Source: a virus | Lineage: Duplodnaviria; Caudoviricetes | Virus record (IMG/VR): IMGVR_UViG_2775507097_000001 | Location: 29,192-93,191 of that record | Direction: 5' to 3' (one strand) | Length of the DNA: 64,000 nucleotides | Shown here: piece after piece, positions 42,649 to 56,072 of the stretch | How positions within the stretch are numbered: position 1 is the stretch's first letter | Layout: each line of letters opens with the position of its first letter | Translations under genes and position numbers: made by a program | The notes under the pieces: generated by a model | Database searches by the model: none | What the model saw: the letters and a program-made list of their open reading frames with translations, nothing else | What the model was told of the DNA's origin: nothing

Positions 42649-43854
42649 ATGACGACCTTCCCGGAACTGCTCCGTGAGTGGCGCCTGGCTGCCCACATGT
42701 CCCTCGCGGACCTGGCCCAGCGCGTCCGCTACGACCGCACGTCGCTGCACAACTTCGAGACCGGCCGCCGGCCGACCCCGTTGTCTGTGGCGGAGGCCGC
42801 GGACGAAGCGACCGGCGCGAACGGCGCGCTGGTGGAGGCGTGGAACCGGGAGGACCTTCAGCGGCGGGAGGCTGCGGCAACGCACCGGGTGAGGGCTGCG
42901 GCCCTGGCCATGACGCGGGATCTGACCGCGCTGGCGGACCTGGACATCGCAGAGCTGCAGGACGGTGTCGCCATTACGGCGGTCGACTATCTGGCTTCTC
43001 CCCCGGGTCCGATGATGGACCGGGCGCACGTGCTGCGCGGTGAAGCGTTCGAGCGGATCCGGTCCGGGCATCACCGTCCGGCTGACCGGTCCGATCTGTA
43101 CGTGGCCGCGGGCCGCCTGTCCGGGGTGCTGTCGTACGCGCTGCTGGATATGGGCGATGCGGACGAGGCGCTCGAGCACGCCACCGCGGCGGGCCGGTGC
43201 GCCGAGTTCGCCGGGGACGCCGAGCTGGCCGCGTGGGTGGCGGGTACGAAGTCGCTGATCGCGCGCTTCCAGGGCGACTACGGGCGCGCGCTGGAGTACA
43301 TCCGGGACGGCTACCAGTGGGTTGGGGCCGGGCACGGCACCGGTGAGGCGCGTCTGCGCTGCGGTGAGGCCCAGTGCCTCGCGAACCTCGGTGACAGCCG
43401 GGCCGCGAACCAGGCCCTGGACGGCGCCGAAGCCGCACGGGAACGGATCCGCCGCCCGGACTCTCTCGAGGGTCTGTTCGGGTTCTCGAGGGCGAAGCAG
43501 TCCTACTACGCCGGGTCCAGCTTGATCTGGCTGCAGGGCGGCCACGACGCGGAGCGCGCGGCGCGGGAAGCCCTCGAGGCGATCGCGCTGTGGCAGTCCG
43601 GTCCGGTGGAAGAGCGGTCGCTGGATGACGAGCGGCTCGCCCACATCTACCTCGCCACGGCCCGGGTGCAGCTCGATGACGTGGAAGGCGCGGCCGATGC
43701 CCTGGTGCCGGTCCTGTCGTTGCCAGTGGAAGAACAGATTTCGTGGATCGTGAAGCGAATGGACCGGGTGGCGGGAATGCTCGGTGCTCCCCGGTACGCC
43801 GGTAACCAGACGGCTACCGAGACTGTCGAGCAGATCAACGCCCTTGCGGCGTGA
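42649..43854 (+). CDS. XRE-family HTH regulator with TPR-like C-terminal domain
   Basis: LRE.R....MSL..LA..V.Y....L..FETGRR, followed by Ala-rich helical repeats. Confidence 0.88.
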   Translation: MTTFPELLREWRLAAHMSLADLAQRVRYDRTSLHNFETGRRPTPLSVAEAADEATGANGALVEAWNREDLQRREAAATHRVRAAALAMTRDLTALADLDIAELQDGVAITAVDYLASPPGPMMDRAHVLRGEAFERIRSGHHRPADRSDLYVAAGRLSGVLSYALLDMGDADEALEHATAAGRCAEFAGDAELAAWVAGTKSLIARFQGDYGRALEYIRDGYQWVGAGHGTGEARLRCGEAQCLANLGDSRAANQALDGAEAARERIRRPDSLEGLFGFSRAKQSYYAGSSLIWLQGGHDAERAAREALEAIALWQSGPVEERSLDDERLAHIYLATARVQLDDVEGAADALVPVLSLPVEEQISWIVKRMDRVAGMLGAPRYAGNQTATETVEQINALAA

Positions 43855-52425: not shown

Positions 52426-52820
52426 CTGAGCAGCCCCCGGCCGCACCACAGCCCTGCGCCGGCTTCCCCGACCAGTGTCCCTACCTGCTCACCGTCGACC
52501 CGAATCCACCGCACCACGGTGGCGGTGTCTGCTGCGGATGCAACGCCCGCCGAGACCTCGAGGACATGGCCTTCGAACTCGCCACCGGCGCTGGCGTCGT
52601 CGACCCTCGCGCGTACAAGGCCACCCTGGACCGGTACGCCGCGCAGGTCCTCACCCGGCACGCTGAGTTCCTTGAGAACCTCCCACCCGGTGGTGAAGCC
52701 CTCAAGGGACCGTACTGGTACCGCAACGGCATCACCGACGCGGCCTACTTGGCCCGCGACAAGGCCGACTGGTACGACCACGAAGCCGAGAAGAAGACCG
52801 ATCAGCCCAAGGAGGACTGA
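52422..52820 (+). CDS. Hypothetical protein with N-terminal CxGFPxxCP...CGC motif
   Basis: RBS GAGGAGG; GTGA coupling. Confidence 0.7.
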   Translation: MTEQPPAAPQPCAGFPDQCPYLLTVDPNPPHHGGGVCCGCNARRDLEDMAFELATGAGVVDPRAYKATLDRYAAQVLTRHAEFLENLPPGGEALKGPYWYRNGITDAAYLARDKADWYDHEAEKKTDQPKED

Positions 52821-52821
52821 C

Positions 52822-53640
52822 GTGGGAGCCCTGAACCTCGTACCCGACCAGTCCCTCACGCCGGATCCGAGCACGAAGACCGGCGGCCGCGGCGGAGGAG
52901 GAGGATTTGCCGACCTGGCCCAGCAGATCTACCAAGACGACCGCGCCGACGCGAAGTCCCGCCAGCTCCTCCTGGCGTTCGCCTACGTCGTCACCATGCA
53001 GCGCACCGACGACCCGAAGGAACAGTGGCGCAACCTCCGTAAGGCTCTGGGCCGCAGCGAAAGGCACCGCTATACCGACTTCCTGCGCGAACTCATCGAG
53101 CACGACCGGCCCCGCTACGTCCCCCCGGACGAGCGGCCCGGCGGCTACGACCCGTCCAAGCGGCTGTGCGTCGGCCCGCGCCTCCGACCGTTCAAGGAGC
53201 GCCCCTACAAGGCGGAGCAGATGTCCCTGCCCGCCCGCGTAGCGCAGACCAAACGGGACGCCGAGGACTTCCGCAACACCGACAACGTCTGCGGCGCCCC
53301 CGGCAAGGACCGCGTCCTCGAGAAGCTGCCCGCCACCGGCTGGTACCGGTGGCACTGGTTCTGCCAACGGCACCGCGACCACGCCCTGCGCGTGAAGGAG
53401 CAGGTGAAGGCTCAGAACGCGGCCGCACCCGAACCCATCCCGAACGCCGGCGGCCTGATGCCGTGCTACTTCGAAGCCGACTGGGTCCGCCTGTACCGGC
53501 ACTACACGTGGGACACCTGGGAGCCGCCCGTGTACGGCGTGCGCGCCGACGACTGGCCCATCCCCGGCAAGCAGCCCGTCCCGCAGCGCGCCCGGCTCAG
53601 CCTGGTCATCGGCGGAGGGCTGGAGGATCCGGATGAGTGA
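52822..53640 (+). CDS. Hypothetical protein
   Basis: RBS AAGGAGG; D.PRY, FC.RH, P.PN.GG motifs. Confidence 0.7.
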   Translation: MGALNLVPDQSLTPDPSTKTGGRGGGGGFADLAQQIYQDDRADAKSRQLLLAFAYVVTMQRTDDPKEQWRNLRKALGRSERHRYTDFLRELIEHDRPRYVPPDERPGGYDPSKRLCVGPRLRPFKERPYKAEQMSLPARVAQTKRDAEDFRNTDNVCGAPGKDRVLEKLPATGWYRWHWFCQRHRDHALRVKEQVKAQNAAAPEPIPNAGGLMPCYFEADWVRLYRHYTWDTWEPPVYGVRADDWPIPGKQPVPQRARLSLVIGGGLEDPDE

Positions 53641-54121
53641 TGAGCAGCGCCTGGCCAGGTTGGCGGAGGAGCTGTGCCACGTCTACCACTACGGGGTCGG
53701 CCTGGATGAGCTCGAGGAGGAGGACCCCGACCGGGCCCGCGCGCATCGGCGGGCCGCGCGCCGTTTCCTCCGCTGGCTCGAGAACGCTCCCAAGGAGGAG
53801 TTGAGGGAGGAGAGGCGGGCTGCGTTCCGGCGGGGCTACGACCGCGGCGCCGAGAACGCGAAGAAGTCGACCGCCGAACAGATCGAGCGCCTCGAGGCGG
53901 ATGTCGCCGAACTCCGCAAGGACCGGGACCCGGAGGGCCTGCGGGCCCGTATCGCCGATCTGCAGTACGTGAACCGCGGGTACTCCCGCATCGTCATGGG
54001 CGGTTCAGACCTGCGCGCCGAGCTGGCCGATGCGCTGAGCCGGCTCGAGGCCGTACAGCGGGAGCTGGCCGTGCTGAAGGGTGTGCAGCCGTCCAACGCG
54101 ACCGGTGAGCGGCCGTCCTGA
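53633..54121 (+). CDS. Coiled-coil hypothetical protein
   Basis: Overlapping start; charged helical sequence. Confidence 0.7.
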   Translation: MSDEQRLARLAEELCHVYHYGVGLDELEEEDPDRARAHRRAARRFLRWLENAPKEELREERRAAFRRGYDRGAENAKKSTAEQIERLEADVAELRKDRDPEGLRARIADLQYVNRGYSRIVMGGSDLRAELADALSRLEAVQRELAVLKGVQPSNATGERPS

Positions 54122-54125
54122 GTCG

Positions 54126-55214
54126 TCAGGCCGCCGACTGATCGGTCTTGGATATGTCGCCTAACGGGGCACTGTCGTCGAAGTGGTAGTCGGGCGACAG
54201 GGCGAACTTGCAGCCCAGCTGTGCGGGCGACACGGCACTGAACTTGTCCTTCAGCACCTCAATGTGCTTCGTCAAAGTGCGCGGGCTGATGCCCAGCCGG
54301 GCCGCCGTCGTGCGCTGCTGAATCCCGTCGACCATGTCCCGCAGGATCGCCCGCTCGAGCGGTGTCGTCCGTACGCCCGCGGACGGGCCCGACACCGTGT
54401 CCACAGACCAGGGCCGGGCGCCCGCCATCGCCTCCCGGACGTCCGATCCGGTCCGCGGCTCCCCCTTCCACGGCTGGGCGAGCTGCCAGGCGTTCATGAA
54501 CGCTCCCACGATGAACCCGATCGCCGCACGGTCCGTCACATGCCATGCCGCGTGCGCGGGTGAGCCCTCCACCACATAGTCCGATACGAAGGCGTGCTGG
54601 CGGTCGATGACGATGGCCCGCTCGTACGGGGCGACCAGCGTGCGGTACTCGGCTCCGTGACCGCTCATCATCCCGATGTGGGAGGCCATGGCGGAGGACT
54701 GGCGGACGCTGTCCCGGTACAGGGTGTACATGGTCACCCCGCGGTCGAGGGCGGCCCGGTCACGCTCTACTGACCGCTCGAGCTGTTCCTTGGTGCGGGC
54801 GCCGCCGGGCTGGGCGGCGAGGATCTCCGTGCTGGCCGAGTTGAGCAGGTCGTCGAGGCGGGTGTTGACCACTGTCGCGTCGTCGATGTACTCGCTGCCG
54901 CCGCCGGCCAGTGACTGGGCGCGTTCGAACTGCGCCGACAGCTGTTCCGACATCTTGCGCAGACCTCGCATTTTCGCGACGCGGTCTGCTGCTTCGGTCA
55001 GCATTGCCTCGAGGCTTCTCTGTGCAATGTCCTCGGGATTCAGGGCGACTGGTCTGCCCCCACCACCTGAATCGATCTTCACAAATCCCCAGGTGGCCAA
55101 CTCGGCGACGGAATCCGCACACCCCTCCGGGACCGGTTCACCCGCCGCGATCAGCCCAAACGCGTGCACAGCGTCCGCGGACAGCAACTCCCGATCACCC
55201 ATTCCTGAATTCAT
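54126..55214 (-). CDS. LuxR-family regulator with TrmB/PLD-like sensor domain
   Basis: N-terminal wHTH-like region; EILAAQPGG.R, DR.AL.RGV...TLY, R.IVIDR..AF; C-terminal LuxR HTH (A.RLGIS.RT...H). Confidence 0.88.
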   Translation of the reverse strand: MNSGMGDRELLSADAVHAFGLIAAGEPVPEGCADSVAELATWGFVKIDSGGGGRPVALNPEDIAQRSLEAMLTEAADRVAKMRGLRKMSEQLSAQFERAQSLAGGGSEYIDDATVVNTRLDDLLNSASTEILAAQPGGARTKEQLERSVERDRAALDRGVTMYTLYRDSVRQSSAMASHIGMMSGHGAEYRTLVAPYERAIVIDRQHAFVSDYVVEGSPAHAAWHVTDRAAIGFIVGAFMNAWQLAQPWKGEPRTGSDVREAMAGARPWSVDTVSGPSAGVRTTPLERAILRDMVDGIQQRTTAARLGISPRTLTKHIEVLKDKFSAVSPAQLGCKFALSPDYHFDDSAPLGDISKTDQSAA

Positions 55215-55253
55215 GGCCAAAGCTTCTGTTCCCCCGTCAAAACAAGGCCAGGC

Positions 55254-55286
55254 GCTGCGTATACGCGCAATGCGTAGATACGCAGC
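55254..55286. promoter_or_regulatory. Inverted repeat in the divergent LuxR/peptide intergenic region
   Basis: GCTGCGTAT-N15-ATACGCAGC. Confidence 0.65.
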
Positions 55287-55495
55287 ACACAAAGGTTGAG
55301 GATGAAAAGACTGTACGGCAGTTTAGTTGCGGGGCGTCCCCCGGCGCTCGTACTCCACGTCCTCCCCACGCACCGCACGCGTCTACTGCCAGCACGCGCG
55401 CCACAAGCCACGGGATTCGCAGCGGACCAGAGCACGAGAAAACCGGGACGGCGCCCCACTATCGTTCCCCGGACAACCGAAGAAGGGACACCGCC

Positions 55496-55711
55496 GTGAA
55501 CAAGCGCATCCGCTGCATCGTCGCCGGCCTCACCCTCGCCACCGCCGCAGCGACCGGCGCCGTCATCACCCACACCGTCACCGCCCCCCGCACAGACACC
55601 ACCTGGGGCGCCCCGGCCGACACCACGTGGGGCAGCGAGCCGGTCGACCTTCCCGTCACCCTTCCCGTCGACCTGCCGACCATCACCCCCCTCGACACCA
55701 CCTGGGGCTGA
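55496..55711 (+). CDS. Small secreted peptide precursor with three DTTWG repeats
   Basis: RBS AGAAGGGA, GTG start; basic N-region plus hydrophobic signal; DTTWG at 55595, 55619 and 55694 (the last is C-terminal). Confidence 0.8.
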   Translation: MNKRIRCIVAGLTLATAAATGAVITHTVTAPRTDTTWGAPADTTWGSEPVDLPVTLPVDLPTITPLDTTWG

Positions 55712-55811
55712 CCCGGCCCGGCCTGGCACGGCATGCCCGACGGGGACACCCCGTGCCAGGCCCGCCCCGACCCGGGGCAACAACCGCCGCGATCCGCGGG
55801 ACCGTGGATGC

Positions 55812-56072
55812 ATGGCCCTTCCCCGACCCGCCGAAGAGGAACGCGTCGCCCTCTGCGAATGGCTGACCGCGAACGGCATCGACCCCAACACTGTTCCCCT
55901 GCACTCCGAACTGTCCATCGTCGACGGGGTCATCCGCTTCGAGCAGTACATCCTCACCGACGACGGCCACAAGCAGGTCGACCCCGAGCACCGTGATACC
56001 GCGTGGACCCGAAACGCCACCGCACCGTGCACGGTTGCCCCGCCGGCCGAGCTGAACATCGCAACAACCTGA
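55812..56072 (+). CDS. Hypothetical protein
   Basis: CEWL.ANGIDP..VP motif. Confidence 0.7.
   Translation: MALPRPAEEERVALCEWLTANGIDPNTVPLHSELSIVDGVIRFEQYILTDDGHKQVDPEHRDTAWTRNATAPCTVAPPAELNIATT

Follow-up and report, generated by a model that had tools for sequence, protein, structure and literature searches.

A divergent TrmB-like/LuxR-type regulator and a DTTWG-repeat precursor as a candidate peptide-signalling pair of Streptomyces phage-plasmids and their relatives

Precursor gene, regulator and intergenic region

Positions 54126-55711 of the stretch of Streptomyces viral DNA analysed here (64,000 nucleotides, hereafter the window; part of IMG/VR record IMGVR_UViG_2775507097_000001) hold two head-to-head genes, one for a DNA-binding regulator and one for a small precursor protein with repeats of the pentapeptide DTTWG, which an inspection of the letters alone (the original prediction) had proposed to be a phage peptide-signalling pair. 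The precursor gene (55496..55711, plus strand) begins with GTG, 7 nt downstream of a ribosome-binding site (AAGGGA, 55483..55488, plus strand), and is predicted to encode a Sec-type exported protein of 71 amino acids, in which a basic and hydrophobic, signal-peptide-like N-terminus (residues 1-21 approximately) is followed by a spacer and three exact DTTWG units. These are residues 34-38 (55595..55609), 42-46 (55619..55633) and 67-71 (55694..55708), all on the plus strand, the third coming after a conserved TPL, with the stop codon (55709-55711) right behind it. The open reading frame (ORF) thus has the features first ascribed to it, including the difference in codons between repeats, the second Thr being ACG in the middle unit and ACC in units 1 and 3.

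Across 28 homologous precursors the first and the final DTTWG never vary. The spacers differ both in sequence and in length, and the middle copy has frequently decayed, being degenerate or lost in several relatives. All copies are identical in 31 of 40 distinct multi-copy precursors, against 3.6 expected (maximum 11) when units are shuffled among precursors, and the copies of mixed precursors differ by one residue. The first unit abuts the AxA signal-peptidase site in the precursors of phage Chymera and of Kitasatospora, described below. It is well supported by these comparisons that the short repeated unit is what selection keeps in the precursor, the unit copies being the only conserved parts of the predicted mature protein.

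That this ORF is not a gene at all, its repeats being due to chance or to DNA-level effects, and that for example the antisense ORF at 55459-55749 is the real one, would be suggested by the openness of that antisense frame and its third-position GC content (GC3) of 0.91; however, open antisense frames occur at 41 of 42 homologous loci in this GC-rich DNA and are uninformative, whereas the sense frame keeps the signal peptide, the identical units and a stop codon right after the motif over about 50 diverged loci, with synonymous changes. Among 139,320 stop-to-stop ORFs of at least 40 amino acids in the whole 11.7-Mb genome, only eight have their C-terminal pentamer three times within the last 75 amino acids, and because the seven others are all tandem-repeat junk frames, the contribution of chance is negligible. 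We consider this explanation most improbable.

The regulator gene (54126..55214, minus strand) encodes 362 amino acids from an ATG at 55214, chosen by alignment with 90 relatives and by its conserved GGCCATG context; its ribosome-binding site (GGGGGA, 55230..55235, minus strand), read from the sequence, is kept in related loci. A start at TTG 55292 was rejected, as the alignment of relatives and the conserved GGGGGA...GGCCATG context place the start at the ATG. The predicted domains are a winged helix (residues 13-57), a long coiled-coil helix (60-102), a phospholipase D-like (PLD-like) alpha/beta domain (107-250), a disordered linker (265-278) and a four-helix LuxR/GerE helix-turn-helix (HTH; 285-344). 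Arg, Tyr and Trp residues R151, R158, Y166, R171, R199, W224 and W249 are conserved. Single-sequence Pfam searches gave GerE at E 6e-5 (23.0 bits, cut-off 23.5) and Regulator_TrmB at E 0.0018 (18.0 bits, under the cut-off of 22.2), and PF00196 is present in many relatives; NCBIfam gave weak HTH matches only. An AlphaFold model built from a 90-sequence alignment (mean predicted local distance difference test score, pLDDT, 85.6) was compared with known structures by Foldseek: its first 260 residues matched TrmBL2 (E 1.6e-12) and TrmB (3qph, E 1.9e-8), and the alpha/beta domain matched PLD-fold proteins such as Nuc and Zucchini (E about 1e-6). Against the PDB, a profile of the regulator family matched only LuxR-type HTH domains (those of RhlR, NarL and FixJ, at E 1e-5 to 4e-5); in RhlR and SdiA the HTH was the only part matched. 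No acyl-homoserine lactone (AHL) autoinducer-binding domain and no tetratricopeptide repeat (TPR) family was found in the Pfam search of the regulator, TrmBL2, TrmB and PLD-fold proteins being the best folds of the model, and no HxK(x)4D motif was found in the PLD-like domain in the regulator alignment. The structural matches to TrmBL2, TrmB and PLD-fold proteins, taken with the HTH-only profile matches, point to a TrmB-like sensor module whose second, sugar-binding lobe appears to be replaced by a LuxR HTH. Pfam, the model and Foldseek agree in this respect with the original prediction, which had named a TrmB/PLD-like plus LuxR-HTH protein, different in type from the RRNPP receptors, as the head-to-head partner of the precursor.

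Between the two genes lies a predicted dyad operator of 29 bp (55256..55284), composed of two 14-bp units, TGCGTATACGCGCA and TGCGTAGATACGCA, 1 nt apart, each of the form TGCG-N6-CGCA (55256-55269 and 55271-55284). A 9-bp inverted repeat had been noted at 55254-55286; an inverted repeat exists there, with 16-nt arms that are 81% complementary, and it is better described as the two 14-bp units than in the 9-bp form. The layout and position of the operator are the same in all Streptomyces loci, with clade-specific half-sites, and the tandem operator occurs once in the 11.7-Mb genome at up to one mismatch. In Kitasatospora, where the two genes are convergent, the start codon of the precursor is preceded at about 130 bp by an equivalent dyad of 29 bp (GTCATCTCTCTGCC-n-GGCAGAGAGATGAC), which is absent upstream of the regulator. 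Because the dyad stays upstream of the precursor when the genes converge, the operator belongs to the precursor gene.

A promoter for the precursor is predicted at 55296..55324 (plus strand), with a -35 element TTGAGG (55296-55301), a 17-nt spacer and a -10 element CAGTTT (55319-55324). In the precursor direction, 3' of the operator, Streptomyces loci keep TTGAnn, 17-18 nt, cAnnnT, 6-8 nt and GGGGCGTCCCC, and Kitasatospora has a comparable GTGACA-17/18-CAnnAT downstream of its operator. The GGGGCGTCCCC element itself (55331..55341, plus strand), which is predicted to lie where the precursor mRNA begins, is kept in almost every Streptomyces locus, and its fold is no more stable than that of shuffled sequence (z -0.4). 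Transcription is predicted to start near 55331, so that the operator centre (55270) would lie at about -61, a usual position for an activator, and the poor -10 element fits dependence on one. A possible regulator-directed -10 element (TACAGT, 55310..55315, minus strand; TAnnnT conserved) lies within a conserved CTGCCGTAnnnT; it would overlap the precursor promoter back-to-back and may place the operator in the 5' untranslated region of the regulator. The proposed promoters rest on conservation; between the two genes a generic scan called no promoter. Just 3' of the precursor stop codon is a strong GC-rich stem-loop (55720..55762, plus strand; -40.5 kcal/mol, z -3.75, equalled by 1 of 200 shuffles). 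It probably acts as a terminator that lacks a U-tract, in which case the precursor gene would be transcribed on its own; a scan for T-run terminators did not call it.

Because the operator sits upstream of the precursor in both gene orientations, before a weak conserved promoter, the regulator most likely activates the precursor gene. The pairing of the genes, selection on the D-x-x-W unit and control of the precursor by the regulator are, taken jointly, very probably as described.

Carrier element, relatives and peptide types

The window belongs to a stand-alone contig of 93,191 bp with a GC content of 68.7%, compared with 70.0% for the whole genome. Terminase, portal, head protease, major capsid and tail genes make up a virion module on this contig, in keeping with the earlier assignment of the window to a phage, and an FtsK/SpoIIIE-like (FtsK/TraB-like) gene is also present. 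Homologues of the regulator are carried by numerous complete circular plasmids of Streptomyces (88-94 kb) and by viral contigs of like size in IMG/VR. From this, and from its own size and gene content, the carrier is predicted to be a phage-plasmid-like element; one homologue is on the 89,658-bp plasmid of S. ambofaciens ATCC 23877, where the peptide is DTAWG. The carrier may belong to the pZL12/pSAM1 group of Streptomyces phage-plasmids, a placement made from size and content; the likeness lies in the stand-alone 93-kb contig, the full virion module, the FtsK/TraB-like gene and the circular relatives of 88-94 kb. PHROGs contained no family for the regulator, the precursor or most neighbouring genes. 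At 55812-56072 (plus strand) the window encodes an 86-amino-acid protein with a C-x-W-L-T-A-N-G-I-D-P motif and no family match, which is found 3' of the precursor gene in many phage-plasmids at a varying distance and is part of the element backbone, outside the cassette.

The regulator family comprises 310 clusters at 50% identity (E <=1e-30). All ten Streptomyces genomes sampled have it, and of the 248 actinobacterial genera in the sample just one other does; this sole non-Streptomyces match in the phylum sample (L069, in a 3.8-Mb genome, G339:C6) is accompanied by a small predicted-exported ORF with a single DSSWG, located one Ile after an AQA signal-peptidase site and not C-terminal. In IMG/VR, a query with the single regulator protein gave no match, and loci were obtained by an alignment-based scan. 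Nearly all of the 56 loci fetched (Streptomyces, Kitasatospora and Leifsonia; genomes and IMG/VR) have a D-x-x-W precursor beside the regulator. It is divergent in nearly every Streptomyces locus, with units DTTWG, DTAWG, DTGWG, DTWWG, DSTWG, DSVW(G) and DTCWC. In Kitasatospora chromosomes the precursor is convergent and its units are DTIWN, DLIWT, DWEWQ, E/DHQWT, DISWT, DLHWG and EYNWS; at these loci (L022-L038; for example L027:1-5843) the pair is syntenic, directly 3' of grpE-dnaJ-hspR of the dnaK operon, and the precursor, converging on the regulator, has its own dyad operator and promoter. A distant member of the family (L065, E 1.5e-38 to the profile) has four D-I/L-Q-W units, of which the last ends at W. 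Because the units vary across loci and that last unit stops at W, the family core is D/E-x-x-W, with the residue after W variable or absent.

Phage Chymera of S. venezuelae encodes the only phage homologue of the regulator (gp29, 27.8% identical), divergent from gp30, a protein of 59 amino acids in which DPGWG comes directly after a signal peptide ending in AQA and occurs once more at the stop codon; the pair adjoins an integrase and an immunity repressor. The small membrane protein found 3' of the Chymera precursor was not conserved across the loci. When IMG/VR was scanned in reverse for the pattern xxWG...DTxWG-stop, 39 places were found, and all eight of the exported multi-copy precursors among them have a regulator 0.5-0.7 kb away. 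Collecting homologues had been proposed as a check on linkage, and its outcome is clear: an adjacent small predicted-exported D-x-x-W ORF is almost always found beside regulator homologues of 28-100% identity, in three genera and in phage, plasmid and chromosomal contexts. The pair is phage-borne here, as first described; the family as a whole is not phage-specific, since it is also chromosomal, beside the dnaK operon in Kitasatospora. Literature on the D-x-x-W motif and on peptide communication of Streptomyces phages yielded no description of the pair or the motif.

Every sampled Streptomyces genome has a chromosomal cluster of two or three paralogous TrmB-LuxR regulators (G000:C10:291690-294563 in the genome of the window; L059-L061, L080, L091 and L070-L088), and some of these clusters have precursors, with DSGWT five times (L072), EPSWE four times (L078) and DSTWG twice (L073). 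One paralog of the C10 cluster in the genome of the window contains an in-frame TGA.

Peptide types follow regulator clades, which shows co-inheritance, not co-evolution. The two genes at the 3' end of the regulator (window 52519-54121) allow a mosaic comparison with two related loci: in L054 they are 92% and 89% identical to those of the window, whereas the regulator is only 39% identical and the peptide is DTGWG/DTAWG, and in L002 the flanking genes are 96% and 92% identical and the regulator 78%. Because flanks are 89-96% identical while regulators are 39-78% identical, the comparison suggests that the signalling cassette is exchanged by recombination.

The variety of these settings also bears on the nature of the small protein. 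It could be an exported product other than a signal, for example a peptide that is antimicrobial or that resembles the ribosomally synthesised and post-translationally modified peptides (RiPPs), a factor of the cell surface or of exclusion, or a decoy for proteases, with the neighbouring gene doing no more than regulating it; precursors with several cores are typical of some RiPPs as well, and short Trp-containing motifs are common in bioactive peptides. Against this, no tailoring enzyme, transporter or immunity gene is conserved and only the regulator is constant, the flanks being wholly different (phage genes here, grpE-dnaJ-hspR in Kitasatospora, an aldo-keto reductase and Asp23 elsewhere), and the PLD-like domain is without the HxK(x)4D motif. 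A product of this kind is unlikely, and it is probable that the peptide is an extracellular signal.

DTxWG mini-genes in temperate phages

Eight further matches of the IMG/VR pattern scan share a different, conserved unit, which is found in complete records of temperate Streptomyces phages of 55-85 kb. In order, this unit consists of a -10-like box (TACCGT), a leader of about 70 nt with three hairpins closed by a 12-bp stem, a GGAGG, a mini-ORF and a terminator hairpin. The mini-ORF has 7-14 codons and no signal peptide and encodes MSDTAWG, MSDDTAWG, MSDTAWGLSDTAWG, MSDDTGWG, MSSDTGWG or MSDDTDWG. Such units are located at L099:1958-2150 (plus strand), L101:5487-5679 (minus), L102:2640-2832 (minus), L106:4687-4900 (plus), L124:225-417 (minus), L125:475-667 (plus), L130:4701-4893 (plus) and L136:1440-1700 (minus), and also in L138, L142 and L145. 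With the leader only as query, without the peptide, further units were found, of which three have a mini-ORF, in each case encoding MSDTWWG, while five lack one; a copy in one Streptomyces chromosome also encodes MSDTWWG. In the five latter viral contigs (L139, L140, L141, L143 and L144) the three-hairpin leader (GGCGGCCTGCC...GGCAGGCCGC) has no mini-ORF behind it, so that the leader, as RNA or as DNA, may function independently.

Insertions and deletions in the mini-ORF are of whole codons, and its variable residue is at the position that is variable in the secreted precursors, with three of the four states (A, G and W) common to both. The unit adjoins an integrase or resolvase, and the TrmB-LuxR gene was absent from the five complete viral records tested. 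The unit was not found in cultured phages and matched no tRNA, tmRNA or Rfam family. An origin as a host gene copied into attP was rejected, because only 2 of 300 Streptomyces genomes carry the unit.

The mini-ORF may encode a leader peptide or else a cytoplasmic mimic of DTxWG. Because a peptide with the same core is made in the cytoplasm, the mini-genes suggest that DTxWG has a target accessible from within the cell; the mini-ORF peptide might instead be released at lysis.

Relation to known systems and the question of the receptor

The nearest functional likeness is to the arbitrium system (AimR-AimP-AimX) of Bacillus SPbeta-like phages, with which the pair shares a temperate phage carrier, a small, predicted Sec-exported propeptide with a short unit at its C-terminal end, an adjacent cytoplasmic DNA-binding regulator, a single operator on the element and peptide variants that track receptor clades. 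It differs in that the regulator is TrmB-like with a LuxR HTH, has no TPR and is not homologous, the genes are divergent and not in tandem, the peptide gene itself is preceded by the operator, an aimX-like output was not found, two to four copies of the unit are present and the host phylum is Actinomycetota. The phage-borne Rap-Phr systems of Bacillus phages phi3T and phi105 are alike in having several pheromone copies per propeptide, duplicated pheromones that are freed by extracellular proteases (PMC11343458). Rap, however, is a TPR protein without DNA binding, whereas here the copies are usually identical and the candidate receptor is a transcription factor of another fold. In PlcR-PapR, Rgg-SHP and ComR-ComS, as proposed here, a one-component regulator activates the adjacent propeptide gene through a dyad box before a weak promoter, giving autoinduction, and ComS-type pheromones likewise contain Trp; these regulators are XRE-HTH and TPR proteins restricted to Bacillota (PMC10075063), with no relation in sequence or fold to the present one. 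TrmB and TrmBL2 of Thermococcales share with the regulator the winged helix, the dimerising coiled coil and a PLD-like first effector lobe (E 1.6e-12 to 1.9e-8), but TrmB binds sugars with a second, beta-sheet lobe, in place of which the regulator has a LuxR-type HTH.

An adjacent small predicted-exported propeptide with a short C-terminal unit is present as a genetic layout, as in RRNPP and arbitrium systems. Because the TPR receptor that defines those families is absent, the pair is not a member of them. At 42649-43854 (plus strand), at a distance of 11 kb from the pair, the window also encodes a protein of 401 amino acids with an XRE HTH and TPRs. This RRNPP-like protein was weighed as the receptor instead and set aside, as it is not linked to the cassette. 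Its close homologues are found on few pair-carrying plasmids; one, 86% identical, is on a plasmid with a TrmB-LuxR protein 51.5% identical and the same DTTWG, a comparison that does not discriminate.

The pair can be pictured as a self-contained two-gene cassette of a predicted-exported precursor and a cytoplasmic regulator on a Streptomyces phage-plasmid of about 93 kb. Judging from the conserved anatomy, the regulator would bind the 29-bp dyad about 61 bp upstream of a weak activator-type promoter and switch on the precursor gene, and it probably damps its own gene as well, because the operator would also lie in the leader of the regulator. By analogy with the systems above, host proteases would free DTTWG after export, the C-terminal copy by one cut and internal copies by two; the peptide would accumulate with the density of carrier cells, re-enter through an oligopeptide permease, bind the regulator as its ligand and alter its DNA binding. 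The resulting autoinduction loop would report the number of neighbouring cells that carry the same element. Its output might lie in lysogeny, copy number, transfer or host genes. We hold this whole chain, including the step in which the regulator reads the peptide, to be a tentative proposal. That step by itself, the peptide as ligand of the adjacent regulator, is plausible to about the same degree, on the strength of analogy, the persistence of linkage and the lead from the mini-genes, and the ligand-domain architecture of the modelled regulator, which resembles that of TrmB, counts in its favour.

Several results weigh against a receptor role for the regulator. Covariation had been proposed as a test, for which domain identities were computed over all regulator pairs and corrected for divergence in the rest of the protein. 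Peptide types do track regulator clades, but a shared peptide adds only +0.013 identity in the PLD-like domain, the most conserved part of the regulator, so that no covariation signal is seen there at domain resolution; it adds +0.094 in the N-terminal winged helix, which covariation with the operator could equally explain. Three low-entropy positions of the regulator (147, 148 and 237) track Thr versus other residues at position 3 of the peptide, a pattern that, at position 148 for example, could need only one or two evolutionary events, and mutual information between regulator columns and peptide type largely reflects phylogeny and N-terminal columns of high entropy. Neither a permease nor a protease gene is linked to the pair, and no output gene was found; the genes downstream of the precursor differ between loci, with no aimX-like receptor-controlled output gene next to it, and a search of the element and the whole 11.7-Mb genome, allowing one mismatch, gave no second operator. 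Some family members have no precursor within the fetched stretch, including those of the C10 cluster in the genome of the window. The two host genomes with the mini-ORF have chromosomal systems with DSQWG and DSVWP, and no matched pair was seen. As for the suggestion that the pair steers lysis and lysogeny or conjugative transfer, nothing was found that ties it to either; the sole operator of the genome is inside the cassette.

Some of these results would be expected if the regulator were only the transcription factor of the peptide gene and sensed something else, the peptide acting on a host membrane sensor, on a chromosomal TrmB-LuxR paralog or on competing elements. The anatomy of operator and promoter shows control of the peptide by the regulator, not the reverse; the PLD-like domain gives no covariation signal; paralogs in all ten sampled Streptomyces genomes could be targets; and DTxWG mini-ORFs occur in phages that have no receptor of their own. 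Yet the pair stays together down to 28% regulator identity, in both orientations and in unrelated contexts, and moves as one mosaic unit, a linkage that co-regulation alone rarely keeps. Precedent points the same way, for to our knowledge the regulator is the receptor wherever an unmodified exported propeptide beside a one-component cytoplasmic regulator (RRNPP) has been characterised. A separate target for the peptide therefore seems to us rather unlikely, and the adjacent regulator is retained as its candidate receptor.

A broader reading can be put forward as a long shot: D-x-x-W would be a gene-encoded pheromone language of Streptomycetaceae, read by cytoplasmic TrmB-LuxR regulators, its pherotypes (DTTWG, DTAWG, DTGWG, DTWWG and others) being swapped as cassettes among phage-plasmids, phages and chromosomes, and rival temperate phages without a receptor would jam or hijack it by means of the mini-genes beside their integrases.

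The pair is tractable, with a predicted peptide of five unmodified residues and an operator and promoter predicted to the base, and it is available in cultured carriers, phage Chymera (host S. venezuelae) and the 89.7-kb S. ambofaciens ATCC 23877 plasmid; if the proposal is true, orthogonal peptide-inducible switches for Streptomyces engineering could follow. Gene-encoded peptide quorum sensing with cytoplasmic receptors has been held to be specific to Bacillota, Actinomycetota using small molecules such as butyrolactones (PMC10075063). The wide recurrence of the pair makes it a strong candidate for peptide signalling in bacteria thought to use small molecules only. If DTTWG is read by the regulator, Streptomyces phages, plasmids and chromosomes would have an independent form of peptide communication with a different receptor fold and with pherotype-like diversity, for which phages might also encode mimics of the signal.

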